NCBI GenBank assembly: GCA_010093605.1
Contig: MU004197.1
Location: forward strand, 806,001 to 870,000
Direction of reading: 5' to 3'
DNA: 64,000 bases
Source: Lophium mytilinum
Lineage: Eukaryota
The notes under the pieces are model-generated. The model worked only from the letters and a program-made list of their open reading frames with translations. It was not told the DNA's origin and ran no database searches. Positions 947 through 28,672 of this stretch are shown here, one piece after another. The stretch's first letter is position 1. Every line of letters begins with the position of its first letter. The position numbers and the translations under genes were made by a program.

Positions 947-1957
947 GTGGTTGAGTATAATGTTTGGCAGTAGAGTAGAATACGTGACTTATAACGTGCA
1001 AGGCTTGACTCGCTGCGTGCTGCTTTATGCGTTGTGTTCAGCTAAGAGCTCATTGACAGATTGCCGGTAATGTGTGAATGGTGAGTGTGAGTTCGTGAGA
1101 CGGATTAGCAACAGTGCTTCATTCTTAACAAATGTGGAAGCCTAAAATGACGTGAAGAACAGATCGCAAGCAGATGCCTACGCCAAGCAAACGTAGGGGA
1201 ATGGATTGAGGGGTACAAAACTACCTAGCGCGTAGGACATTACAATAATGCGTGGTTTTGAAGACAACAACGACTTGGACAGGATTAGAATGAATTGCGA
1301 CGAATCTTTACTCGTCGTTCTGGACGGATTACTAATCTATGACCACGTGACCCTCCGAGCTCATTCCCCACTCCACGTCCCCGGTTCGACACAAACCATC
1401 AATGAGCACACCCCCATCAACCACCTGAAACTCAAGGTTAGCTGCCGCAGGGTCTTTGATCGTGGGCTTGATGTTGCGACCCAGTATCAGGTGCATATCC
1501 CGTAAGAGTAAGAGTGAACAGCTCTGTATTTTAGGTGGCACACGTAGGAGAAGATGTCACCTGCCTTAGAGTACATCTACCGGGCGAAGGAGTTATATTT
1601 CGCAACCAGCGCGATACACCTTCACATCGGAGAGAGAATAGTCAAGCCGGCGAAGGTGGAACAGCGGGAACCTGTGGACACGGAGAAGAAACCTGACTAG
1701 AGCCGCTCGGGCATCTATACAGCCAGGCATGTTAACGTGTTCTGTATTCCTGGTTAGCAGAGTACAGTAGGCGTCAGCCTCGAGGTGGCGGGTTCAAGTT
1801 GGCTGTCTATTGAGGGTCGACCTCCATGGATTAGCGACTTGTTGCTTCTCGACAAATCAGCAGTCTCACGCTTCTCAAGGGTGTTTTCTCAGTCTCGGAC
1901 TCTATTCGACAAGCAAACCTCCCATCGTCAAACAAGCTCAGGAAGCGACAACGAACA

Positions 1958-3820
1958 ATGGCCGAACAGCATACATCGCAAAGGGATTTCCCTGCCTATA
2001 CGGACCTTCCACTTGACTACATCAGGGTTGTGAGGATCTTGCCGGGCGCTGGAGAGAGCGATATCCATTGCCACATCAGCCTCGTCTCACTCAAGAAACA
2101 GCCCGATTACATCGCGTTGTCTTATGCCTGGGGTTCGCCGGAGAAAGAAGGATCATCAAATGCAAACGCAAGGACAACGAGAAAGAGGAAGGAAAGGGGG
2201 AAGACCCGTACCATCTACTTGAACGGGCACCCTCTGGGCCCGATACGCAAGAACCTATGGCGCTTTCTTAATCAAGCTCGAGAGCTCGCATCAACACTCA
2301 CCGACCTGCAGAGCGATTACTGGATTGATGCAATATGCATTGATCAGTCCCACCAGGAAGAACGAAAGCAGCAGGTTGGACTCATGCCGAGAATCTACGA
2401 GACAGCGAGAAAAGTGCTCATCTGGCTCGGCCCAACATACGACAACAGCAATGTCTCTTTGCGGGAACTCACCAGACCCATATTGTACTGGCGAGCGAAG
2501 AAAAATGTATTCAGCGTCTGGACCAAGCCAGCTGGCGCAGCTATTAGTAGCCTTTGTGGAAGGCCGTATTGGAGACGACTCTGGATATTCCAGAAAATCA
2601 TGCTTGCGCGCCAGATCGATATCATGTGTGGCGATGAGATAACCCCGTGGGGTCCTTTCCGCGACTTCCTTGTCGAGCTGAGCACTTTGACACCTCCTCC
2701 TCGCATCCAGGATGCGATCGAGTACCAGAACGTTCGAAATAGCCCTGCAATGGCCATCGTCAAGCAGACTGCGAAGAGGCCCCTCGATGCTACGGAACGC
2801 CTCGGCCGGACTCTGTGGAACCTGATGAGCGCAACGGAGGGTCTTCACTGCGCCGAACCGCGCGACAGGGTCTATGCGCTTCTGGGTGTTGCACAAGCAG
2901 GACACACGAATATCATCGCTGACTATTCCATGTCTATCACGACCCTTCTTAATCTTGTTCTGAAGAAACAGCATGAAGTCGAGCCTCCCTGCAACTTGGA
3001 AGAGGTTGCTAGCCAATGTCGTTATCTTGAAAGATTACTACACATAGAGGCCCATTCGCTGGTCACACTCGAAGGTCTGTCGGAATTAGAAGATCGGCTG
3101 CATTGCCCAGGATTCCTTCACAGCCCCGTATTCAACCTTAATCTACCTCAAAACTATACAACACTCGGGTGGGCCTCGCTCTATGGCCACGACGCGGTGA
3201 AGCGATTGCTGTTTGACCCCGCTCCAGCTGAGTTTGGCTTTGATGAATGGCGTTTGAGTAACATGCTGTTCAAGTCTGCTCAAGACGGAAACGAGGCGCT
3301 ACTGTCGGAGCTGCTCATATGGCATAATCAATACATTCCCGGATCGGTGGACTATGACGACATTAACACACCGCTGCAGTGGGCCGCAGAGAATGGGCAC
3401 AAGATGATGACGAGCTTTCTGCTTGAATCACCAGAGATCAACATCGACTCAGTCTCCAGGTATCCAGTCTCCGGGTATCTTATTGAGAGATTGAAATCAC
3501 CGCTGCTGCTGGCCGCGGCAAATGGACACGACGCGATTGTGAAAATGCTGATGCACAGAGCCGATCTCAACCGTAGAGATCGGGACGGCCGCACGCCGCT
3601 ATGGGCGGCTGCGGCAAGTGGGGATGATGCTATTGTCAACCTACTACTCGACACTGGCAAGGTCAATATCGACTCATTCGACTACGAGGGTTTGACACCA
3701 CTATCAGGGGCTGTATTGTACGGCAGGGATTCAACAGTCAAGCTGTTACTCGACCGTGGAGCAAACCTCCAACTACTTCGATTTAAAATACGATGTCAAG
3801 AGGATAGGGAAAACGATTGA
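1958..3820 (+). CDS. HET-domain protein with C-terminal ankyrin repeats
   Basis: HET motifs YIALSYAWG, WIDAICIDQ, QVGLMPRIYETA, YWRRLWIFQ and PRDRVYALLG. Ankyrin repeats TPLQWAAENGH, SPLLLAAANGHDAIVKMLM, GRTPLWAAAASG and GLTPLSGAV. Confidence 0.9.
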   Translation: MAEQHTSQRDFPAYTDLPLDYIRVVRILPGAGESDIHCHISLVSLKKQPDYIALSYAWGSPEKEGSSNANARTTRKRKERGKTRTIYLNGHPLGPIRKNLWRFLNQARELASTLTDLQSDYWIDAICIDQSHQEERKQQVGLMPRIYETARKVLIWLGPTYDNSNVSLRELTRPILYWRAKKNVFSVWTKPAGAAISSLCGRPYWRRLWIFQKIMLARQIDIMCGDEITPWGPFRDFLVELSTLTPPPRIQDAIEYQNVRNSPAMAIVKQTAKRPLDATERLGRTLWNLMSATEGLHCAEPRDRVYALLGVAQAGHTNIIADYSMSITTLLNLVLKKQHEVEPPCNLEEVASQCRYLERLLHIEAHSLVTLEGLSELEDRLHCPGFLHSPVFNLNLPQNYTTLGWASLYGHDAVKRLLFDPAPAEFGFDEWRLSNMLFKSAQDGNEALLSELLIWHNQYIPGSVDYDDINTPLQWAAENGHKMMTSFLLESPEINIDSVSRYPVSGYLIERLKSPLLLAAANGHDAIVKMLMHRADLNRRDRDGRTPLWAAAASGDDAIVNLLLDTGKVNIDSFDYEGLTPLSGAVLYGRDSTVKLLLDRGANLQLLRFKIRCQEDREND

Positions 3821-4501
3821 CCAGCGCAGGCCCTTTTCATCACCGCGGCCGCAAGCGTCATGCTCCAACGCGACAGACTTGGTGCTCTTGTATGAGGACA
3901 AGTGCGGCTTTTTGAAAACGTCCCGATGTCAGTTGCGGCCGAGCTTAGGAGTTGGATCGTGCTGAGGCGTGGATCTAAATTAGCTCTACTCCATAAGGGT
4001 AGGTGTATGCTACTGGGGCGCTTCTTGTCGGAGAGGAGTTGAGTGGCAGAGTATAACTTGAAAATTAGTATATCGCATTTTTTGCTAATTTTAATCGCCG
4101 CGCTGTCAATGATAGGGGAGACCTAGGGTAGCAGGCAGCACGGTCTTAAAGAGGGTAATAATAGTTCAAGGGATAGACAGAAGATATATAAAGAACGAAT
4201 AAGAAGAGGAATAATAATATATCTAAAGGGTAGCTTGGAAAAATACTAAATGAATTAGGGTATGTAGAAACTGCCTCCGCCACGCTACACCTAGAATACA
4301 CGAAGAAAGAGGGGTGGAGGGGTAATTAAGGCTAGGCAACAGGGACGCCAGGCACCAGGCACACTGGTTAATAGATTCACTATCGTCACGCCGTGGAAAT
4401 ACGCATCACTTTCCAAGTCTTGCACGCCGTCCCCGTGCAAGCGCAGCAGCTGCTCAACTTGCATATCACGACAATCATCCGCATACATCAGTCACGCAAC
4501 C

Positions 4502-5359
4502 ATGGGTGAACCAAGTAGCTATGGCGGCGGCGCCGCCACGTCTGGGGCACCTTACGAGTCTGCCCGAGAGTTCACCATGCTTGGTATTATTTCCCCTTTA
4601 CCACGAGAGATCCTCCATCCAGGTTCCTCCACACAGACCTTGAACTGATAGCTTTCAGAAAACAACCCGGAAGTTATGAACGAACTCGCTCACAAGCTTG
4701 GCGTTTCAAACGAGCTTGCCTTCCACGATGTCTATTCTCTCTATGAAAGCGACATGCTGGCCATGGTTCCACGTCCCGTCTTCGCTCTATTAACCACGAT
4801 TCCCATGACAGAAGTTTGGAAGCAAGACCGCGATGCAGAGGATTCTAGCCTCGAATGGTACAAGGGTGCCGGCTCAGAGGAACCGGCAATCTGGTTTCAG
4901 CAGACCATCATTCACGGCTGCGGGCTCATAGGTCTTCTTCATTGTGTCTCCAATGGGACTCCTTTGGAGATGGTTGTACCCGGAAGTAAGTTGGCCGACT
5001 TTCTGAAGGAAGTGGTGCCTCTTGGAATGGATGAGAGAGCAAAATTCCTGCGCGAATCAGACTTCATGTATGAGGCCAGTGAATCTGTTGCGAAACGAGG
5101 TGATTCGAACCTCCTGACGCCTGGTGACGAGGGTGATATCAACCACTTTGTAGCGCTGGTGAAGGGTGCTGATGGGAATCTGTGGGAGCTCGAGGGAGCG
5201 AGGAAAGGACCACTCAACAGAGGAGCCTTAGCGGAGGATGAAGATGCTCTCAGTGAGCGGGCACTGGAGCTGGGCATCAGGCGTCTCATTGAGATGCAGC
5301 GAAAGGCTGGTGTCGATCTACCTTTCTCTTGCATTGCTCTCGGTCCTAGGGTCAATTGA
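4502..5359 (+). CDS. Ubiquitin C-terminal hydrolase (peptidase C12, UCH-L3/Yuh1-like), divergent paralog; exons 4502-4583 and 4659-5359
   Basis: Splicing the GT-AG intron 4584-4658 restores FTML-ENNPEVM. Catalytic region QQTIIHGCG, NHFVALVK, LWELEG. Confidence 0.85.
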
Positions 5360-6429
5360 TCACGAGCGAAAAGCATGTACTTTGGTAAACTGCCTTATTA
5401 GAGCCATGGATAGGCCAATGGGAGTTTCAACACCACCAACGGCGATCTTCTAATGCTGGATGCTGTTGTTACAGCCTTCTGCCATCAGCCTATCCTATTT
5501 TGCCGGAGAGAAAAGTATAGTGGTCAAGAAGTTCTCGGTCAATCTACCGATCCTTGATTAAATGAAAATGAACGAAAGTAATGAAGTCAATCCAGGGTGT
5601 TCTTTACGAAGCTATCGACTTTTTTTGTCAGACGCAGAAGGAAACAATGCCGCTAATATCGAAAGGCTAAGGACCCACAACCTTTCGACTCATGACCCTT
5701 CCTATACTCCTTCACAAGCAGCATCACTGGATCCAGGCCAACGCAGTGGAAATTAGACTACCTTATGACGAAGGTGTCACATTCAACATGGGGCACCCCT
5801 CACAGTGGTGTCAGTCGGGCAAGAGTAGAGCCAGAGCTGTGAGATATCCACGTGCCCAAACTTATGACCTGGTACTGTATCAAGACATGAGGCCCGGCAG
5901 CACAAATTCTCTATTCATATTACCCCTCTACCTTCGTGTGAGGGATAATAAGCGAGACCGAACAATCCCATTGCCGCTCTCTCGGATTACGGTCGTCCTG
6001 TCGAGCTGTTAGACAATTATGCAACCGTTCAAGCCACCTTCACTTACCTTTTACTGCTCTCCGGTAGAAGGATATGCATGCAGCCACCACCGGGCCCATT
6101 GCAGTGACCCTTTTCTTCTCACCATACTCCATGACTTCTTCATAACTCCTCGATTCGACTTGATTTTCCCTTTGCCCCTTATCGTTTACCAACGCCCGTA
6201 TCGGACCGTCCATTGTCTACATAGGCGGCTAATATTGTCAGCACTAGTGAGGCTCGAAATCCTGAGGTTCCTCACCGAAAACACAAACAGTCAACCAGGC
6301 GGATCCTTAGCTACAGTTGGGAGTTTGATCGCGCTTTTGTCATCTTTTCTACTTGAGGTCTTGTTTCGATTTACCAGACATGAATGTACTAAAGCTCAAA
6401 ATGTCAGGTGCAGTAGAAGTGGTGGCCTT

Positions 6430-8953
6430 TTACTTCGACGAAACTCCCCGTTCGGCACCCGCTGAAATGAGACAGCTGACAATGGCTGCATGACGCGATT
6501 TCGACCAAGGCAATTTACGGCTTAGATTGATATCTGCATAATCCAAAGCGGTTTTCCCAGTAATGTCCTTTGCATTGATCAACTTGTCGTGCCAGGGAAG
6601 TCCAAGAAGGAACGTAATAGCATCGACACTTCCTTTACGAGCGGCAACATGAAACAGCGTCTGCCCTTGCGCTCCGAGGGCAAGGGGATCGTGAGGTTGC
6701 GCTCCTGCTTCAAGGAGGAACTTCATAGCCACCGTACTGTTATCGCTCAAGCCTGCCGCGAACATCAGGATTGATTGGCCTCCAGATTGCGGATAAATCT
6801 CATTTGGATTGGCTCCAGCGTCTAGGAGCACTTTCGTGATCTCGAAGTTTGAATTCTTCAAAGATTTGCCCAAAGGACTGCCCCTCTCGCCCTCAACGCC
6901 AGCAAAGGCAGCGAGAAGGGCTATCATGGGCAAACCGAGTCTGGTTTCCTGCCAGGTAGGGGTCACCCCCCGTCCCGCAGACCTCATCACCGCCATTATG
7001 GGCGTGTAGCTTGTGGGCTTGTTGCTTCGGAGCCCTATTGGCATGATCCTCCGAGTTTCAGGGATGCTCCTCCGAATTTCAGGGATGCTGAGCCCATTGT
7101 ATAAGAATAGATGAATCAAAGAGAGAAGATCGGCCAACTGGGAACTTAGAACCCGCTTAGCCAAATCAGGGTGGACTCTTCCAATATATTCCATGAAAAC
7201 AGTACTACTCCAAATGGCTATCTGAAGTTGTGTAGGATCATTCCAGTGGCGATCATTGATATGAGGAAGTTCGCCTTCTAAGTTTGTAGGAGGCCATCGG
7301 TTGAATTTGATCCCTTCTAGAAGCTTACCATAGAGAGGGGCCTGAAAGTGCGACGGCTTGGCAGAGACGCCGGTTGTAGTGCCCGAGATGGACTCTGGTG
7401 GGGTTTCAAGGAGAACATCCCGCCGCGGCGTGAAACTTCCTCGTTCAACGCGTTTCTCGGTCATATCGGTCCTGCTTGACAAAGAAGATTTCCGCGAGTC
7501 AGACTCCGCACGCCCATGAGGATAAGAAGCATCCTCTTTCAGCTGCCGATAAATATCGTTCAAAGAGTCGACTCTAGAATTCTCGTCAAGCGAGCTGGGA
7601 TATGGGGGGGATCCGGGGAGGTCAATCACGAAGCCATCATCAGTAACATCCTCGGAGATGCAGCATTGACCGCAATAAGGATTTGATGAATCAACATCTC
7701 GACTCTGAAATGTCGAGATGATGTGGTAGATCTCCGCGGCATCTGGCCGGTCACCAGGTGTCAGAGAGAGCATGCCCTCTATGAGTTCTGAGATGGTCGG
7801 ACCTATTTTCTTGGGTCTGGGTTCTTGAAGACGCGAGCGGATCCAAGTGTATGCCGTTTCAGTATTCTTGTGGAAGGCCGTCGTTCCTGAACTACTGCGG
7901 AAAGTGGTTTTGAGGTCTTCAATCCTGAGTCCTCTTTTGACTACGAGTATTTCCATGAAAACACACCCGAGAGACCAAATGTCAGTCCTTGAGTTTCGTT
8001 TCTGATCGGGGTCGAGAACCTCCGGGGCGCAATAGTTGTAGGTCAGTCCAGACGCTTCATCAGTAGTGCTCCTCGAGAGCTGTTGCCAATCAAGGGAGAT
8101 GCCGAAATCTGTGAGATAGACTCCGGCCCCTTTGACGAGAATGTTGTCTGGTTTGATGTCGCGATGGCGAATTTGATTCTGATGTAGGTAATGTAGAGCG
8201 CTAGCAAGGCATCCGAAGAAAGTTCCTAGGGTGATTCTGTGACGGACATGCTGCTCCGAGCTGGCAAGGAAGTCGGTCAGGCTGTGTTCTGCTACGGGAA
8301 CCATGAGCACGCCGAAGTATCTTCTGTCAGTGTAGCTTCCAACCTACACAAATCTGTCAGCGGGTTTTCATATTGAAAAGCGGTAAACTTACAAAGCGAA
8401 CGCAATGTTCATGATCAATACGCTTCATGATGTTCAATTCGTTCTCGAATTCTTTCAAAATGCTCCTCGAATTAGGTCCAAGGCGCTTCTGGAAGCGCTT
8501 TCGGGCAAAAAGGTTTCCGCTTAGCGTGCTGCGCACTCGGTCGACTGCATTTCGTCCCGTTCCCAGCTTTCCAGTTGACTGGTACGGCAAATCTCTGTCT
8601 TCAATGTGCAGATCAACATATTTTCCTTTCCCGAATCCTTTCTCGAGAACAACAGCTTCGGTCAAAACCGAACTCTGCCTTTCGAGGAATGTCTCTGCGC
8701 ATGAACGCAACGCCCTTGGGAGAGAGGAAGGGGTGGGAAAGGGCAAACATATGTCGTTGAAACCCAGGCGAACGAAGTCTTCCATGGCGCTGACTTGGTC
8801 GAGAAGACGACAAAGGATGTAAAGTCTCGGTCGTTTCGCCCACTCGGAGAAGCCTTCATCCTCCAGAAGAGCTGATAACTCCACGCAGTCTCCGTCAGTG
8901 TAGGTATAACCACCGACCTTCTCGGGTGCGAAGTAGTCTGCTAAGGACAGCAT
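6430..8953 (-). CDS. Ser/Thr protein kinase with C-terminal ankyrin repeats; exons 8953-8393 and 8343-6430
   Basis: Kinase motifs GKLGTG, FARKRF, HRDIKPDNIL, TDFG, YCAPE and DIWSLG. Intron 8344-8392 (GTAAGT...CTGAC...TAG) joins CVRF to VGSYTD. Ankyrin-like C-terminus LLDAGANPN, TLFHVAARKG, GKTALDYA. Confidence 0.88.
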
Positions 8954-9734
8954 AGTAATGCGTTTGGGATGAATCTGCGCATGCGGTTCAGTGAACGGTG
9001 GAGTAGAGCATGGCGATGAGGGGAAAGTTGCAGGCCAAGCTGCGAGGCTACGAGGCTGAAGATTTGGGGGTGACGCAAAATAATCAGCCTTCTTATCTGA
9101 AGTTTTCGTGATTGGCTCATGAGGCAAGGCTACTTGATCAAACTTACAATCTTGCAGCGCGCTTTACTTTTATGAACTCCCAGTTCACCTAAACATCACA
9201 CTAATGGGACTTCGAAAGGAGTGTCGAATGCGTCGCTGGGAAAATTGGAATTGAAAAAGAGCTTGCTGAATCAATCGAGTTCCATGACCCATAGAGTGAG
9301 CGAGATGCCATCTTGATAGCGAATGATTTGTGCAAACTCCTTGATAGCTTAGATGAACATGCGCTTGGGCCATGACGTTTGTTACGCTACGCGCCTACTG
9401 ACATCTCCCTTTACTCAGGTGAAAAACAGGGGACACCTCTCTTCCAAGGCGCAGACATCCTCGTAAGTATGAAAACTAGGAGCGAGTTTATCCATTGCTT
9501 CTAACATAACGTTGTTGGTGATCGCTCGTGTTCCGGTTGGTGGGTCGTGATGCTAGGTACTTCATAAGGAGACACGGAGATTGCGCCAAGGCACCCACCC
9601 CCATCCTACCTACCCAGTGATTTAGATCCGCCTGCGAGCACATTGGAGCCTTTACCAATCCAAACGAAAAAGAAGACGGAACGTGATAAGAAGAGATCAG
9701 CACGAGTAAATAAGAAAACTTGAGGACAAAAACC

Positions 9735-9741
9735 AAAAAAA
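9735..9741 (-). terminator. Pol III oligo-T terminator of tRNA-Ser
   Basis: TTTTTTT on the minus strand about 12 nt after the tRNA 3' end, followed by a further T-run. Confidence 0.7.
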
Positions 9742-9752
9742 TTAATCATGTA

Positions 9753-9884
9753 CGACACCTCTGGGGATCGAACCCAGGCTCCCTGAGGATTGTTAGTGAC
9801 CTGATTGGACATCAAGATTTGGGGAAGCCGTACCGAAGGAACGGGCTTAGCAGGCCCGCGCGTTAACCACTCCGCCAAAGTGCC
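9753..9884 (-). tRNA. tRNA-Ser(GCT) interrupted by a 51-nt GT-AG intron-like insertion (9783-9833) in the variable arm
   Basis: Minus strand: GGCACTT TG GCG-GAGTGGTTAA-CGC G CGGGC-CTGCTAA-GCCCG TTCC-TTCG [insert] GGAG C CTGGG-TTCGATC-CCCAG AGGTGTC G. All stems pair, discriminator is G, mature length 81 nt, T7 run downstream. Confidence 0.9.
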
Positions 9885-10473
9885 TGTTTGATGGACGGTA
9901 GCGGAAAATGTTGCAATATATAGTTTATTCAGAAGAGCTAATAGGCGAGATTTGACATCGGCTGCGGGCAAAGGCTTGGCAAGCATGCATGACCTCGGGA
10001 TTACAACTCCACCATCACAACTTGTTACCTGGAAACTGCACATTTCACGCGAGCAAAGGGCCCCGGATAGATGCCGGCTTATTCTGAGTCACGCAAAACC
10101 CTTGTTCAATATTACTGTTATCGAAAATCGGTCCTCCTACATTCCCACTGTTACTAATTATAGGACTAGGGGTGCGTTCAACGAATATTCGACACTTCAC
10201 GTAACATTCGCATAGAAAAGCCTTTGGTTTACTCTCGACAGTCTTTCGCTAAGCCCTCTGGTGCCAAATGCCGGTTTAATTGACGATATGGTAGTGTTGT
10301 TTGCTTCCTTTCGATGGTAAATTTCACGAGCGCAAGGGTATTCATCAGACCAAACACTTCCATTAACATTAGGGTATCAGAATTACTTTCACGTATATAC
10401 ACATCGCAGCTTGAAAACAGACAGCCAACCCCATCTTTCAGATTCCCATCACATCGCCGCCCATTCAAAGTTC

Positions 10474-11367
10474 TCATGAGACCGGCATAAGCTTGATGCT
10501 ATCAACCCAAATCTCCTTCGTTCCCGTATTAGCCTGGGCTACATTGCTGAACTGGATTTGAAGAACACCATAGGTAGATGTGAGTTCCGTAGCCGGGATA
10601 ACAATATTCTGATCCGCCGTAAACGTCGTCCAATCAGAAGAAGCAACATTCTTCGAATACATGATAACGTTGTAGCCCTTAGTACCGATGTCCACCGTCG
10701 CCGAGACGTAGAAAGCCAGCGCAGTCGATGCGGCCGAGTTGCGGCGAGCAGCTAGCGAGAGGCGGTATGTGGTGCCCGGGCAGACGGAAATGCCTTGGGT
10801 GATGTATGAGATGGCATTCGCGTCCGTTTGCTGCACGCTGATGACATAGTTGCCGTCGGCGGGACCGGGCGCAACGGTTCCGCCTCCTGCGCCGGGGCCC
10901 TTGAGCACGGTGTTGTCAGAGGAGCGGCCGGGGACGACGATCCAAGGAGCCAGGTAGCCGCAGCACTGGTTTTCGAAGTCGCCGTTGACAACGGCGTTGG
11001 CGGTGTGATTGCAGGTGGAGGAGGGCTGCACAATCTTGCCATCACAGGTGCCAGTTTCTATGCCAGTGATGCCGCCGACGGTGCCTTGCTTAAGGTAGCA
11101 TGTGCCCCCTGAGGTGTAGGATACGTCGGTGCAACCAGTGGTTGTCGCACAGCTGGTCATGCAGTCGATGAATGAGCCACCGAAGAGAGGATCGCCGAGG
11201 TTATTGTTGGATCGGAGTGCGTCCGCTTCGACGGCGAACAGCTTGCCGCCGGCCGTATAGGTGCTGCCACTGTCGATGCCGGCGCAGTTGGTAGCGCGTT
11301 TCGCAACAGAAAGAGCTGTGATGGGGGCAAGGAGCTGCGCAATGGCAAGAGACAATAAGATTAACAT
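10474..11367 (-). CDS. Secreted Cys-containing protein: PAN/apple-like domain plus CBM4/9-like beta-sandwich
   Basis: Signal peptide MLILLSLAIAQLLAPITA and a KR processing site. Apple-like CMTSCATTTGCTDVSY...CYLK. VVNGDFE...QGISVCPGTTYRLS...IWVDSIKL is typical of CBM4/9-like folds. Confidence 0.65.
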   Translation of the reverse strand: MLILLSLAIAQLLAPITALSVAKRATNCAGIDSGSTYTAGGKLFAVEADALRSNNNLGDPLFGGSFIDCMTSCATTTGCTDVSYTSGGTCYLKQGTVGGITGIETGTCDGKIVQPSSTCNHTANAVVNGDFENQCCGYLAPWIVVPGRSSDNTVLKGPGAGGGTVAPGPADGNYVISVQQTDANAISYITQGISVCPGTTYRLSLAARRNSAASTALAFYVSATVDIGTKGYNVIMYSKNVASSDWTTFTADQNIVIPATELTSTYGVLQIQFSNVAQANTGTKEIWVDSIKLMPVS

Positions 11368-12127
11368 CGTATCAGATTTGTCCGAGTGAAAGAAAATAAG
11401 TAGCGAAAAGGATAAATAAGACGAAGAGAAACAGGAACTGTAGATACTAATGATAAGGAGAAGCACTCTTGTTCATGGGCGAAGGCCACTATTTAAACAT
11501 TCGCAGGCCGGTTCGACCGGACATGGGCTACAAGGAAAGCAACCAAAGATTCCTTCTTTAGTGTTGACGGCGCCACATGAATCGATAATTTCGGCTTCAT
11601 CCTCGCAAGTGCCCTTATAGGCCTGGCTGATACTGGTGCATTTTTCTAGAAGAAGACGACGGACGAGTCTCGGAAGGATCGGCACTCTTATTGACAATGG
11701 AGGAAGCACGGATCCGGCGTACTTTCATAGCAGTACCCCTATACCAAGGCGCCTCGCCAGGACTATCGTGAGTTTAGTGTAAGCCACCTGCGCTAAAAGC
11801 CGGCAGTGGCTGACTGAGAACGCCTCCCTCTGTTGTACTTTTTCCGCAGGAGATGTAATCTTGACTAATTTGATTATCGCGTTCAATTCACGCTATCGAG
11901 ATTGTCGGTGTAGAGTTCTTAGTTGGGGGATAGAGAAGAAGTTGATTTAATCGAAAGCCGCATTAAAGGAAAGATGGGTGTTGTCGGTGTTGAAAATTTG
12001 ACGCGTCGGGATAGGCGAGTTTGTGGCGTTCAGCCAGAACGGCGTGCGGGCTGGCAGCCTCTTTAAGCTAGAAGAAGCTTGACACGGCCTGATCGAGATG
12101 CCCATGACTCCAATAGGAATTTCCATG

Positions 12128-12712
12128 CGACAATAGTCTATGATGCTGGTAAATATACCCTGTATAGTCTTTAATGCTTGCAAAACGCCACCGGGGCTGC
12201 ACTAAGCTAAAACAGCTGTAGCTTCGAGCGACCCTTGCCTATGCAGCGTTTTGCAGGCGTGCACAACTCACGTAGAGGTACCCGTGAGGTGCAAGATGGA
12301 GGAAAAGAGGGTGGGTGATGATAGAAGATAAGGGGGCAGCCCTGTGCCCGGCACGTGCTTATCTTGTTGGCAGAGCAACCACCCCTAAACATAACACTCT
12401 GCCGCCCCCTAACCCTCTTTATAGGCACACACGGAAGACATGCGACCGGGGAAACCAGCTGCTGCAAGGTGGAATTCCCCGTCCGCTTGTCGACAGCGTG
12501 TGCTTTTGACAATCACGGCTGATTCCCTTGATCACGTGGTTGCTAACCAGCTCTGCGCAGCTAAGCTGGGTGAGTTGTGCATGCTTGCAAAACGCTGCAT
12601 AGACAGGGGCGCTCGAAGCTACAGCTGTTTTAGCTTGGTGCAGCCCCGGTGGCGTTTTGCAAGCATTAAAGACTATACAGGGTATATTTACCAGCATTAT
12701 AGACTATTGTTG
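12128..12712. mobile_element. Non-autonomous Mutator-like (MULE) MITE, 585 bp
   Basis: Imperfect terminal inverted repeats of about 143 bp (12128-12271 and 12570-12712). Exact 9-bp direct repeat ATTTCCATG at 12119-12127 and 12713-12721. Confidence 0.85.
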
Positions 12713-12851
12713 ATTTCCATGCCGTCTGGGCTTTTTCAGATGCTAAAATTGTATTCCCCTACGAAGCCAGCATCAGAACCGAGCGCCAACAATGCAAAAC
12801 TCCAAATCATGCTCTGGACTCCCGATCTCCTGATCGAAGGTCTCTTTATCG

Positions 12852-13394
12852 TAGCACTCCTCGGGCTCCATTCTTGTTCTCTTGACACCACTGTAAGGGG
12901 TGCCCCAGCTAGTTATTAGCTTCATTAAAAGGTAGTCTAATTTACACTNNNNNNNNNNNNNNNNNNNNNNNNNNNNNNNNNNNNNNNNNNNNNNNNNNNN
13001 NNNNNNNNNNNNNNNNNNNNNNNNNNNNNNNNNNNNNNNNNNNNNNNNNNNNNNNNNNNNNNNNNNNNNNNNNNNNNNAAAGGTAGTCTAATTTACACTA
13101 TATTAGCCTTTATATAATATTCTCCCCATACATACTAGGTATTAAGTTCCGGGTACACAGATATAGCACTCCTTAGGCTCCGTTCTTGCTCTCTTAATAC
13201 CACTATAAGGGGTGCCCCAGCTAGTTATTAGCTTTATTAAAAGGTAGTCTAATTTACACTGTGTTGGCTTTTACATCGTATTCTCCCTATGCAGTACTGG
13301 GTCTTAAGCTCCGGGCACACGGATATAGCACTCCTCAGGCTCCGTTCTTGCTCACTTGACACCACTGTAAGGGGTGCCCCAGCTACTTATTAGC
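12852..13394 (+). repeat. Tandem repeat with a ~161-162 bp unit, at least 3 copies, spanning an assembly gap
   Basis: TAGCACTCC...AGGGGTGCCCCAGCTA recurs at ~12852, ~13164 and ~13326. AAGGTAGTCTAATTTACACT recurs at ~12929, 13080 and 13241. Confidence 0.85.
12949..13078. other. Assembly gap (130 N)
   Basis: Run of N. Confidence 1.
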
Positions 13395-13396
13395 AA

Positions 13397-13779
13397 CAGG
13401 TCATTGAGAACGCAGACCAAGGCATATAGTAGGACTGCTGCAGATGCAACGACCGGCTCCTCATCCCCAAAGCCATCAGCCGGCCCGAAGGCGATTTCGA
13501 CTTCTGCCCCAAGGCATAGACTGTCCGGGCCACAAGGAGTTGAGCCCCAGGGAAGGCGTCCAACTTAGAGATGATGAGGGCAATCTCGAGAAAGACAAGC
13601 AGTACGTCGTGGGGCTCATTGGAAGGCCTAGATGCTGCCGTTCAGTGGCCCACCGACACGACCTAACTCCTGACATGATGGCGTTGACGAGGTGCTAGTA
13701 TGAGCCGGGGACAAAGGAAGGCCAGGACCTTAGAAAGAAATTCAGGAAATGGTTGGCTAAGCAGAAGCCGAAAGACTGA
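13397..13779 (+). pseudogene. Possible degraded coding remnant
   Basis: Protein-like frames (DCCRCNDRLLIP...; ...LTRC*YEPGTKEGQDLRKKFRKWLAKQKPKD) are broken by TAG stops next to the mutated repeat. Confidence 0.3.
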
Positions 13780-13826
13780 CCCTCCTAAGCCCTTCTTTCT
13801 TGGCCTTTGGGATATTAATTTCTCTA

Positions 13827-13933
13827 GATGTTGATTAGGTATCTTTTCTTTCCTAATATATGGCTTTCTGGATTCTTTGGATGTTGATTAGGTATCTCTT
13901 TTTCCATAATTTATGGCTTTCTAGATCCCTTGG
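13827..13933 (+). repeat. Two-copy 53-bp tandem repeat
   Basis: GATGTTGATTAGGTATCT...ATGGCTTTCT at 13827 and 13880. Confidence 0.75.
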
Positions 13934-14353
13934 TCAGACCGTAGTTGCTCGGAGGTGCTAGACGCCTTAGATTTCCTTTGTTAGTTAGTAGTGCTTTCTT
14001 TTTTTCGGCTACGTTTGGAAGAACGGAAAAGACTACGCATCTCTATCACAGTATTCCGCTGTGTAAAGCTACTGTTTTAAAAAGATACGATATCTCATAG
14101 ATCTGAGAAACAATTGAATGTATATCATCGTGCTGGCAAGTGCCCCAATGGTGCCCATTGTTTTATTAGAAATAGAGCCAAGCAGACCCCTACGACTACA
14201 CGTGGAAAGAAAGTACAACCTAAAGAGGCGTACTACTATCCCTAGCCGAAGCAAGAGAAGTTGAGAAGAAAAGAAGTCGAAAACAATAATACTAGTAGAT
14301 GGGCGGCTCATACAAAATCTTCATATCTCCGCCTCACATCCTTCACAACTAAT

Positions 14354-16184
14354 CTACGCAACACCTTCGTTAACGCTTGTACTCTCCCCCTCCTCTACCG
14401 CTTCCACATGGTTGCAAAACCACTGGTAGAAGGCTCCTTGCTCAATCTGCGTCGCCGTTCCGTTCGCGCCAAATGCCAAGACGTCGTCACTGCCCATGCC
14501 GTAGTGATTGAGCGGCCAGCCCATCTTAGGAAGGTTGGTGGCAGCATTGCTGGGGTCGGCGGCGAAGGCGAGGAGAAGGTCTTGCAAGGTGTTGGCGATC
14601 TGAATTTCCAAAGCCGTGGAGGGACCGAATAGGGAGAGCGTGTCGAAGTACACTGGCATGTTGGCTGTACGAAGTCTTGTCAGTACAGTTCTAATGGATA
14701 GAGGCAAGGTGGCAATGGGAGGCTTACATTGATGGTATGCACCCATCCACGGTAGGGGTGAAAGATTCGTAAAGTTGCCGGCCCACTCAAAGCGCCACGT
14801 AGCAACCCGCTCGTGATTGCGGAGTCTGTGATGATAATCAGCAAGGCGATTCGCCAAATGTATGATACCGAGTGCGAGGATAGACTGACTTGCTCATATC
14901 GCGCTGCGGGCACATGATACCAGCAAGGGTATCGATTTCCACCAAAGTCTGGTTGGGAGGCGCCGCGGTGGTGGTGCTATCAATAAGGGACTCGGCTTCG
15001 TTGCGGTTTGAGCCATAGATGGCTGGCTGTGAGGTACGGTATCAACTAGTGTTCGGCATACGCCAACGGCAACATGGACTTACAAGAGGTGCAAACTGCT
15101 TCGCAAGGGTGCGCTCAGTGTAGTTGGAGAAGTAGGTAATGTTGTCGGCAATTGGCTGGAAGTTCAAGCGAGTGTCTCTCGTTGCGCCAAAGCCTTTCAA
15201 CGCGGTCTCAATATCCTGCCATGATACACTGCGCATACAGGCGAGTTCGGCTGCAGGAGTCGTAGTTGTGCAGTTCAGCTTCTTCGCGAGGGAAGTGAAG
15301 TTGGAGCCGCTGTAATCTTGGGATCCCGAGGGAGTCATGGCGGAGCCGGAAGTAAGGATGATTCCCTTGGCAATTGGGTCTTCGGGATAGGCATAAGGCA
15401 TATAGTCGATGCTTTCGGCTCCAGCGGAATGGCCCAGCAGGGTAATTTTCTCAGCGTCACCTCCAAAGGCGGCAATGTTATCGCGCACCCACTCTACTGC
15501 AAGACGTTGGTCGAGCAAACCGGGATTCTGCTGTGACAGGGCGGGAGTGTCTGGGAAACCGAAGACGTTGACGCGCTACATTGATTAGCACACACATAAT
15601 GCCACAAACAGGTGCTCAAACAAGAACCATCAGGATGGTGATTAGAGGCTTGCAGAACTTACGTAGTTGATCTTGACCATGATGAAGTCCTGTTTCTTCT
15701 CAAGTAGAAACTTTGGGTCCGTATCCGGGACGTCGATCCCGCCGATGGTGAAGCCGCCTCCAAAGATCCAGACTATAACTGGCAACGGCTTTTTCGGTAG
15801 AGGCCCCGTAGGCTTGTAGACGCAGAGATACAGGCAGTCTTCACTAAAGTTCTCAACAGTGTTGTATTGAGGTAAATGAATGGAGAAGTAGTTTGGGGTC
15901 TGATCGAATTGAGGGCAAGACGGCGGAACCTCAGTCGCGTTGATGTAGTCATGATGGTATGGCTTTTGAGGGGGTGCAAATCGCAGGTCTCCCACAGGCG
16001 GCAGGGCGAAAGGGATGCTGCAGTATTGCTCGACGTGTGGGAAAGAACTGTTGATTGTTCCGTAAATTTCAGTAGAGCCGGCCTTGACCATAGGTTTATC
16101 CGGAGGGCATGATGGGCCTGGCAAAGCGGTGGCAGTCTGGCTGAGAGCCAAGACGAAGGAAGAAAGGAGAACTCGCGAAATCAT
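14354..16184 (-). CDS. Secreted type-B carboxylesterase / lipase (multi-exon)
   Basis: Signal peptide MISRVLLSSFVLALSQTATA; motifs IPFALPPVGDLRFAPP, SEDCLYL, VWIFGGGF, FGGDAEKITLLGHSAG (nucleophile Ser) and WMGAYH. About 4 introns. Confidence 0.9.
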
Positions 16185-25666: not shown

Positions 25667-26973
25667 ATGTTTCCTTCCACCATCCATCTCCGCCATCCTA
25701 ATCCTTCTCCGCCTTCGACCAGAGTAGGCAATACCTATATCCTGTTCTTCATTACGGGAAACCCAGGCCTGATAGCATATTACCGCACTTTCCTCTCCCA
25801 CCTCTACGCGCTGCTATCAAGCACCGAGTCCAGCCAAGCTTCCCCTGGAGCAGACCAGTTCCAGGTCTTTGGGCGGGATTTGTTAGGTTTCGAGGTTGAA
25901 CATGCAGATGCCGCCAGCGCCGCTTCTCCGCCGTACGGACTGCAGGCCCAAGTCGAAGCCACCGAGAAAGCTCTCGACACCCTCGTCAGTGACAACACGA
26001 ACGCCAGTGGCAATCGTCCTAAAGTCATTCTCATCGGCCACTCAGTCGGCGCATATATCCTGCTGGAGGTACTGCGCCGGCATAGAGAGAAGCTCCAGAA
26101 AGCAGCTCCTCAGACCGCTATGACGATCATCGGAGGGATTTGTCTCTTCCCAACTGTCACTCACATCATGCAGAGTCGGAGCGGGAAGAGCGCTGGTGTA
26201 TGTAAAACTCCATATCTAAGCTATCTGTCTGTCTTTGGTAAAGTCGCGAGACATGCTGAGCGGTCATTATGCTGGCACCGTGCTCCCCAATCCAAAGTCT
26301 TACCATTTCTTACAGTTTCTCCTTTGCCGCCCACACTTTGCTCGCATTGCTAGTCTCGTCGCACAGCTGCTCCTGTTCTTCGTACCCAGCGCACTGCTAC
26401 GTCTCCTAATCCGCATAGTAACGGGATTTCCAGCTGAAGCAGTGGCAACAACAGCAGCATTCGTTAAGAGTAAATGGGGCGTGAGACAGGCATTGTACGG
26501 CCCCAGACACCTCCATTCAGGCGAGGCCAAACCCAGATCCTAACATCTTCGCAGGCACATGGCTCGTGATGAAATGCTGTCCATCACCACTGACGCATGG
26601 GACGACGAGGTGTGGGGTGCTGCTCACCCATCTCCAACCTCGCATCCTCGCGCCCAACTGCGATTCCTCTTTGGAACGGGCGATCATTGGGTTGCCGAAG
26701 AGACCAGGGATGACCTGATCCGGACGAGGGCTCTGAAACAGGATAGTGAAGCGGACGAGGCGTGGAAGCCTAAAATGGAGGTTAACGAGGAAGGCTGGCC
26801 GCACGCCTTTTGCATTAGTGGGTCCTATCTATCCATTGGCATCATTAGCTGTCGGGGGGAGGGTGTATGAACTAATTGAAACAGGGCATAGCATTCCGGT
26901 AGCAGAGAAAGTAGCGGAGTACGTTCGCGATACTATACGTGGGGACAAACAGGACGTCGATCAGCAGAATTGA
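25667..26973 (+). CDS. Lipid-droplet-associated alpha/beta hydrolase (LDAH/DUF2305-like), multi-exon
   Basis: FITGNPGLIAYY, ILIGHSVGAYI, CLFPTV, FLFGTGDHWV, WPHAFCI. Confidence 0.85.
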
Positions 26974-28586: not shown

Positions 28587-28672
28587 TCTCCGCTCGCGGA
28601 ATCGAACCGCGGACCTTCAGGTATGATGTTCAATTACAGCCCGACGTGATAAACCAACTACACCAAGCGGAG
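28587..28672 (-). tRNA. tRNA-Tyr(GTA) with canonical 11-nt intron at 37/38 (28623-28633)
   Basis: CTCCGCT acceptor stem (C1-G72, A73), TCGGG-CTGTAA[TTGAACATCAT]A-CCTGA anticodon arm, CGCGG-TTCGATT-CCGCG T arm. TATATATA lies 30-40 nt upstream. Confidence 0.95.

Follow-up and report, generated by a model that had tools for sequence, protein, structure and literature searches.

Can a nuclear transfer RNA (tRNA) gene carry an intron of the kind found in messenger RNA (mRNA) genes, and can such a gene be functional? The question is raised by a tRNA-Ser(GCT) gene of the filamentous ascomycete Lophium mytilinum (assembly GCA_010093605.1, contig MU004197.1, positions 806,001 to 870,000 of the forward strand; this whole stretch of 64,000 nucleotides (nt) is called the window, and coordinates are those of the window). 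The gene is split within its variable arm by 51 nt bearing the signals of a spliceosomal intron. By origin, this insert is very probably a spliceosomal-type (U2-type GT-AG) intron, because two independent inserts in such genes carry all three signals and because the local mRNA introns are alike. That the gene is also spliced by the spliceosome and functional appears, judging from its sequence, to be an evenly balanced proposition.

The split tRNA-Ser gene and its insert

The gene comprises the following parts:

9753..9884, minus strand: tRNA-Ser(GCT) gene including the insert, 132 nt (Rfam RF00005; ARAGORN on the spliced 81-mer)
9834..9884, minus strand: exon 1, 51 nt, with the 5' strand of the acceptor stem, the D arm, the anticodon arm, the 5' half of the variable arm and its TTCG loop
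9849..9851, minus strand: anticodon GCT in an uninterrupted CTGCTAA loop
9783..9833, minus strand: 51-nt insert with spliceosomal-intron signals, in the loop of the variable arm
9828..9833, minus strand: 5' splice-site-like GTACGG, the same hexamer as in the LDAH intron
9792..9796, minus strand: branch-site-like CTAAC (within CACTAAC), with the A at 9793, 10 nt before the 3' end of the insert
9783..9785, minus strand: 3' splice-site-like CAG
9753..9782, minus strand: exon 2, 30 nt, with the 3' half of the variable arm, the T arm, the 3' strand of the acceptor stem and discriminator G
9765-9774, minus strand: B-box-like GGTTCGATCC in the T arm

The Rfam tRNA model RF00005 is covered over its full length (positions 1-71 of 71) at 9753-9884, with 49.7 bits against a gathering score of 29, and about 61 nt are handled in the alignment as an insertion in the variable region. 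Two Rfam matches are present in the 64-kb window, and this one is as good as the neighbouring tRNA-Tyr at 28587-28672 (48.9 bits). The expectation of the first-pass annotation, made from the letters alone, that standard tRNA finders would miss or misjudge the gene is borne out by ARAGORN, which passes over it without the intron option and, when this option is used, mistakes it for a tRNA-Val(aac) interrupted by an intron of 58 nt.

The same annotation read the minus strand as a complete tRNA-Ser cloverleaf split by 51 nt, with no intron between positions 37 and 38, and predicted that excision at GT/AG would rebuild the variable arm and leave an 81-nt tRNA with all stems paired and discriminator G. 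Coordinates, letters and product length all proved correct. Excision of 9783-9833 by script (9884-9834 joined to 9782-9753) yields 81 nt, which ARAGORN identifies as tRNA-Ser(gct); the acceptor stem has 7 bp, the D stem 3 bp, the anticodon and T stems 5 bp each, and the discriminator is G. The variable region of the product is 13 nt long and consists of a 4-bp stem and a TTCG loop. All 24 of 24 cloverleaf pairs are present, and the product has the features of a class II tRNA-Ser. The anticodon loop CTGCTAA is unbroken, and its GCT anticodon reads AGY serine codons. The variable arm of tRNA-Ser is the part recognized by seryl-tRNA synthetase (PMC10275265).

The insert begins with GT, has G at position +5, contains a CTRAY branch motif within the range of 10-20 nt before its 3' end and ends in YAG, as do U2-type GT-AG introns, and the signals first reported for it (GTACGG, CACTAAC with the A at 9793, and CAG) are all in place. 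Its border can slide by one base in either direction with the product unchanged. For comparison with mRNA introns, sequencing run X1 was taken as RNA because its contigs carry spliced joints. Within 4000-16000 these RNA contigs skip eight GT..AG segments of 47-87 nt, with the 5' sites GTAAGT (four introns), GTGAGG, GTAAGC, GTCAGT and GTATTA. The CTRAY motif starts 13-19 nt from the end in seven of these eight introns (14 nt in the insert), and all eight end in YAG (CAG in the insert). A ninth joint, 12892-13270, was rejected as an intron, since it spans an assembly gap.

The counterpart named at the outset, an intron of the LDAH gene at 26495-26554, is real: it reads GTACGG..CTAAC..CAG, contains an in-frame stop, and interrupts a continuous Pfam LIDHydrolase match, with profile positions 133-195 before it and 197-262 after it. 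With 51 nt and a GC content of 0.47, the insert falls within the range of the nine local introns (47-87 nt, GC 0.39-0.58). It looks exactly like a local mRNA intron, since it shares their size and signals and since GTACGG is used by the LDAH intron as well; its initial description as matching the mRNA introns of the window in size and layout is upheld by the eight RNA-proven introns and that of LDAH.

Other origins were considered. A group I or group II self-splicing intron was rejected, as the insert has 51 nt and a ribozyme core takes some hundreds, and no Rfam family besides tRNA was found in 9500-10100 at E values up to 1. A transposon or miniature inverted-repeat transposable element was likewise dismissed: terminal inverted repeats are absent, there is no target duplication beyond one or two border G, and there is no second copy in the window. 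Introner-like or other repeated mobile introns would be present in many near-identical copies; within the 64-kb window, blastn-short searches revealed no further copies of this insert, or of the one described below. The end of the insert (TCCTCAG, 9783-9789, minus strand) resembles the end of exon 1 (TCCTTCG, 9834-9840, minus strand) at five of seven positions. This likeness may reflect a short direct repeat that the insertion event left behind, or chance; a match of 5/7 was considered too weak to claim an origin by tandem duplication.

A second split tRNA-Ser gene and the role of chance

The first-pass annotation had also proposed a scan for further tRNA halves separated by GT, a branch motif and AG. 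Metagenome contigs were scanned for this isoacceptor only, with a pattern that combined three loops of the tRNA (Ser D loop, GCT anticodon loop, T loop) and allowed 60-90 arbitrary bases from the second loop to the third. No GT/AG condition was imposed, and any insert sequence could match. Ten loci were found, one of which (L002) is a tRNA-Ser(GCT) gene with a GT..CTAAC..AG insert. Six have ordinary introns at 37/38 (L003, L004, L007, L008, L009, and L010; L003 and L008 are identical over the stretch compared), and two (L001 and L005) are pairs of adjacent tRNA genes. The same DNA pattern gave no matches in the genome-contig and viral-contig collections, which hold little or no fungal DNA.

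Two of the other loci are unusual in themselves. L006:1-124 (minus) is a tRNA-Ser(GCT) truncated where its contig stops (Rfam 37.4 bits). Its variable region opens with an insert of about 46 nt; this insert lacks GT..AG, and no clean bulge-helix-bulge (BHB) motif yields a normal variable arm. L010:1501-1626 (plus) has a 67-nt intron at the canonical position, with a strict BHB and a second copy of the anticodon-loop segment inside; this intron is misplaced by ARAGORN (56 nt).

L002 lies on a 1170-bp contig and scores 45.9 bits with the Rfam model; the 3' strand of its acceptor stem is the same as that of the window gene. Its insert of 54 nt (GTATGT..CTAAC..CAG) splits the T stem, separating bases 3 and 4 of its 5' strand, and the gene is followed by a T run in the same terminator layout as in the window. 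Excision gives an 81-nt tRNA-Ser(gct). Only one of 16 excision products retains all 24 cloverleaf pairs, namely the GT..AG one.

Each of the two genes is uninterrupted where the other is split. The variable arm of L002 has the 13-nt design, with a 4-bp stem and TTCG loop, that excision restores in the window gene, while the T arm of the window gene is what excision restores in L002. Exon 1 of the window gene is colinear with the uninterrupted exon 1 of L002 as far as the TTCG loop. Pairwise MAFFT alignment of each precursor with the uninterrupted exon of the other locus was partly useful, the end pieces being placed arbitrarily. The spliced tRNAs differ at 13 of 81 positions with no pair broken: ten of the differences belong to five stem pairs in which both sides changed in a compensating manner, one changes G-U to A-U, and two are in the T loop. 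No similarity between the two inserts was detected by blastn-short (longest chance match 11 nt). Judged by their unrelated sequences and different sites, the two inserts are independent.

The frequency of such signals by chance was assessed with 300,000 random inserts generated by a first-order Markov model of the window and placed between the real exons, with product-keeping border shifts allowed. An insert was counted if it had GT..AG ends, G at +5 and a CTRAY motif whose branch A lay 7-30 nt from the end. All signals occurred together in 73 of 300,000 trials for the window gene (51-nt inserts) and in 74 of 300,000 for L002. The boundary was judged by a fixed count of the 24 cloverleaf pairs; ARAGORN was rejected as a judge for being too permissive (443 of 558 excision products of the window gene were called tRNA-Ser). 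With the excision fixed at 51 nt, three of the 14 distinct products of the window gene keep 24 pairs (nine placements, one of them GT..AG), because the end of the insert resembles the end of exon 1. Since the boundary is thus not unique in the window, the chance is to be read as roughly 2e-4 to 1e-3.

Splicing, inactivation and less probable readings

If the gene is functional, RNA polymerase III (Pol III) would transcribe the whole 132 nt, directed by the A- and B-box-like sequences, as far as a run of seven T (T7) beyond the gene. The body of the precursor could keep its cloverleaf fold, and the intron would stick out from the variable arm. The spliceosome would recognize GUACGG, CUAAC, and CAG, the intron would leave as a lariat, and splicing would restore the variable arm needed by seryl-tRNA synthetase, with its 4-bp stem and UUCG loop, giving the 81-nt tRNA. 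The intron itself would be a pre-existing one that was inserted here, for instance through reverse splicing together with recombination. Removal is favored by the undecayed state of both genes, by the precedent that the spliceosome acts on non-Pol II transcripts elsewhere, and by the fact that in both loci the rest of the cloverleaf can still form around the intron. The overall interpretation of the first-pass annotation, maturation through the spliceosome, is supported in part by the intron-like signals, the lack of endonuclease features, the second locus and the lack of a published case; for splicing itself the balance stays even. A wider proposal, that some filamentous ascomycetes have spliceosome-dependent tRNAs, that tRNA-Ser(GCU) gained spliceosomal introns repeatedly at different sites, and that AGY decoding depends on their removal, is tentative and falls a little short of even chances.

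The strongest competitor of functional splicing is inactivation by the intron. An intron (or a complementary DNA or other copy of it) would have been precisely inserted into the gene and would be spliced poorly or not at all, the tRNA being supplied by other copies, and the locus would be a pseudogene young enough to be undecayed. Insertions at odd places in eukaryotic tRNA genes occur mostly in one of many synonymous copies and are taken as pseudogenes (PMC4090602), splicing is normally tied to the transcripts of RNA polymerase II (Pol II) (PMC8527467), and precise GT..AG borders are also expected if the insert arrived as an intron. Against inactivation, both loci have 24 of 24 cloverleaf pairs after excision along with perfect splice signals, all 13 differences between the two tRNAs keep the structure, and the T-run terminator right after the gene is kept at both. 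Two independent dead insertions, both undecayed, are less likely than one, an argument that with two loci is weak. In addition, an intron that entered by reverse splicing should be spliceable in its context, given the reversibility of the reaction. An inactivated gene is a substantial possibility, of doubtful standing but well ahead of the readings discussed further below, which even together are improbable.

Several points weigh against functional splicing. A recent dead insertion would also show intact exons and signals, and other intact tRNA-Ser(GCT) copies, if present, could make this copy dispensable; odd insertions in eukaryotic tRNA genes are by default taken as pseudogenes (PMC4090602). 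The cloverleaf alone does not uniquely fix the boundary of the insert in the window gene. GTACGG is a non-consensus 5' site, GTAAGT being the start of four of the nine local introns. The first-pass annotation had argued that Pol III could read through the insert, as it contains no run of four T; the observation is correct (the longest T run is 2), but the argument was rejected as uninformative, since TTTT is found in just one of the nine real introns. Bases 5-11 of the intron (GGCUUCC, 9823-9829) can pair with GGGAGCC (9777-9783), which comprises the last intron base and the first six bases of exon 2; this 7-bp helix would join the splice sites, compete with the native variable-arm stem, and could hinder splicing as easily as help it. 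The X1 contigs cover 5831-9741 and 10345-12154 with nothing over 9742-10344, and so are evidence neither way. Finally, the scan, which covered this isoacceptor only, turned up a single further example.

A different explanation is that the insert is a non-canonical intron of the tRNA type, removed by the tRNA splicing endonuclease (Sen) and the ligase Trl1, and that GT, CTAAC, and AG are coincidental. Some eukaryotes do have non-canonical tRNA introns, and those of nucleomorphs have been confirmed to be excised (PMC4090602). Ordinary tRNA splicing is also in use in this genome, because the second tRNA gene of the window has an ordinary intron, as the first-pass annotation had expected:

28587-28672, minus strand: tRNA-Tyr(GTA) with a canonical 37/38 intron of 11 nt after A37 (Rfam, ARAGORN)

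The positions of the inserts weigh against introns of the tRNA endonuclease. Eukaryotic tRNA introns sit between 37 and 38 (PMC10275265), whereas the insert of the window gene is in the variable loop and that of L002 in the T stem. Non-canonical introns, found in archaea and a few algae, depend on the BHB motif (PMC4090602). At the cuts that preserve the tRNA product, the central helix has 0 of 4 pairs in the window gene and 0-1 of 4 in L002; the archaeal-type controls (L003, L008, L010) have all 4 of 4 central pairs and an outer helix of 6-8 bp. Pairs of BHB-like cuts located elsewhere delete the long variable arm or require pairing of the anticodon stem with the T stem. The test used the strict archaeal-type 3-4-3 motif and can exclude this strict form only: the motif is also absent from three of the six controls with canonical introns (L004, L007, and L009) and from the tRNA-Tyr of the window. 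The coincidence of three spliceosomal signals would have to be accepted at a chance of about 2e-4 to 1e-3 per locus, and at both loci. Removal by the tRNA-splicing enzymes is accordingly regarded as very unlikely.

An equally slight probability is given to production of the tRNA from a Pol II transcript shared or overlapping with the mRNA of the adjacent kinase gene, with co-transcriptional splicing and subsequent release by RNase P and RNase Z. The tRNA-Ser gene is located between two other minus-strand genes, the CBM_4_9 gene upstream and the kinase/ankyrin gene downstream:

9735..9741, minus strand: T7 run starting 12 nt after the 3' end of the tRNA, by its form a putative Pol III terminator
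9915..9922, minus strand: TATATATT, TATA-like, 31-38 nt upstream of tRNA position 1, a putative upstream promoter element
5831..9741, minus strand: kinase/ankyrin mRNA, assembled RNA contig, with introns 5998-6047, 6229-6275, and 8344-8392 removed
10345-12154 (RNA contig), minus strand: upstream gene for a secreted protein with a CBM_4_9 domain

The 5' end of the kinase mRNA contig reaches 9741, within the T7 run and 12 nt beyond the 3' end of the tRNA, and with the likely ATG near 8953 its leader would be unusually long, about 790 nt. The TATA-like element 31-38 nt upstream of the tRNA could also be cited for a Pol II transcript. On the other hand, the contig ends within the T run, short of the tRNA itself. 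The gene bears every mark of Pol III transcription, including intact box A- and box B-like sequences and the T7 run, the terminator layout is the same at L002, and release by RNase Z should leave the mRNA without a cap and hence unstable. A TATA-like element, boxes A and B and a T run are the usual appearance of a Pol III tRNA gene, and by these elements the tRNA-Ser gene looks like a Pol III-type unit. Because assembled RNA contigs cannot show true RNA ends, co-transcription by Pol II is treated as a minor variant of functional splicing, one that would use another polymerase.

The least probable reading, to which hardly any weight is given, is that the insert is never removed, the 132-nt RNA with its giant variable arm having another role or the locus being a decayed tRNA-like sequence with a chance resemblance to an intron: the unspliced RNA can form the 7-bp GGCUUCC/GGGAGCC helix, extending the variable arm, but this fold is not significantly better than that of shuffled sequences (z -1.4 locally, -0.74 for the whole precursor), the insert of L002 splits the T stem, which no tRNA function should tolerate, and the signals rarely arise by chance (73 and 74 of 300,000 trials, as above).

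Relation to known introns and the surrounding region

We know of no report of a tRNA with a spliceosomal intron. The first-pass annotation had made the same statement, and a full-text literature search, with most subscription journals outside its reach, found no published tRNA gene of this kind. The split tRNA-Ser gene is best placed as an ectopic spliceosomal intron in a non-coding RNA gene, a known kind of arrangement, with tRNA as a new class of host.

The first group of relatives is found among small nuclear RNA (snRNA) genes. Splicing of the U6 RNA of Schizosaccharomyces pombe has been demonstrated, whereas the split tRNA-Ser is known from sequence alone. Introns of the mRNA type interrupt U6 in fungi including S. 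pombe and, in Rhodotorula, U1, U2, and U5, as summarized in a 2018 review of U6 (PMC5855946, citing Tani and Ohshima, 1989, 1991; Takahashi et al., 1993, 1996; Canzler et al., 2016). In its account of non-coding hosts of spliceosomal introns, this review names U6, U2, U5, U1, and rRNA and no tRNA, and it notes that the expression and splicing of many intron-bearing U6 genes still need validation (PMC5855946). The tRNA-Ser gene resembles these genes in having a short GT..AG intron with a branch site in a small structured non-coding RNA gene, transcribed in the case of U6 by Pol III. For the snRNA introns, as described there, entry is thought to proceed via reverse splicing, and the gains are scattered, lineage-specific and at different positions, features that the two tRNA-Ser inserts, themselves at different sites, may share. 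Unlike snRNAs, the tRNA host is not part of the spliceosome, so the argument of closeness to the active site does not apply.

The second group consists of spliceosomal introns in the nuclear ribosomal DNA (rDNA) of ascomycetes, notably lichen-forming fungi (Bhattacharya et al., 2000, cited in PMC8527467 and PMC5855946). One spliceosomal intron of a lichen is spliced out in yeast from rRNA made by RNA polymerase I (Pol I) (PMC8527467). These too are ordinary-looking spliceosomal introns, placed ectopically in non-Pol II genes of Pezizomycotina, and in the accounts cited they are removed from the mature RNA. The differences are in the host, a Pol I rRNA there and a tRNA of putative Pol III origin here, and in number, with many cases and positions there and two loci here.

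The remaining two relatives are classes of tRNA introns cut by the endonuclease. Non-canonical BHB introns are described from archaea, Cyanidioschyzon merolae and the nucleomorphs of cryptophytes and chlorarachniophytes (PMC4090602). According to that description they likewise lie away from 37/38, including in the variable region and T arm, and are likewise missed or miscalled by tRNA finders. In contrast, the tRNA-Ser inserts have GT, CTAAC, and AG without a BHB at the tRNA-restoring cuts, and the window gene belongs to a filamentous ascomycete with a canonical tRNA-Tyr intron. Canonical tRNA introns, 14-60 nt long in yeast (PMC10275265), are similar in being short introns of nuclear tRNA genes; they differ from the insert in the variable loop (in L002, the T stem), which has conserved terminal motifs and does not involve the anticodon loop. 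Textbooks and current reviews assign the nuclear introns of eukaryotes to distinct classes, with tRNA introns located at 37/38 and cut by a protein endonuclease; where they address the matter, a 2023 tRNA review and a 2025 paper on the loss of tRNA introns see no relation between this class and spliceosomal introns (PMC10275265, PMC12530127).

If the gene is truly spliced, its product would provide the first known example of a spliceosome-dependent tRNA, and would cross the line between the endonuclease-cut tRNA introns at 37/38 and the spliceosomal introns. The tRNAs would join snRNAs and rRNA as non-mRNA hosts and would be the second kind of Pol III substrate, and a fourth route of tRNA maturation would stand beside those through endonuclease and ligase, group I and group II introns. 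The capacity for mRNA splicing would be directly linked to translation, and such genes would offer a natural system for the study of intron gain by reverse splicing into abundant RNAs and of the dependence of splicing on Pol II. Since such genes are missed, miscalled or reported as over-long tRNAs, fungal tRNA sets may be systematically wrong. Even as a pseudogene, the locus would be a rare trace, open to dating, of an intron that was precisely inserted into a non-coding gene.

Two further features of the window were observed. A gene at 1835-3820 (plus strand) encodes a HET domain and ankyrin repeats, and the proteins of the window are Ascomycota-like; genes combining HET domains and ankyrin repeats are typical of filamentous ascomycetes. 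At 12068-12238 and about 12560-12700 the same peptide is encoded in open reading frames on opposite strands, which suggests an inverted repeat of about 100 nt. The repeat adjoins an assembly gap (a run of N at about 12950-13090), across which one RNA joint skips 377 nt, and the RNA contigs there are only 90-95% alike. These sequences probably represent a repeat family.

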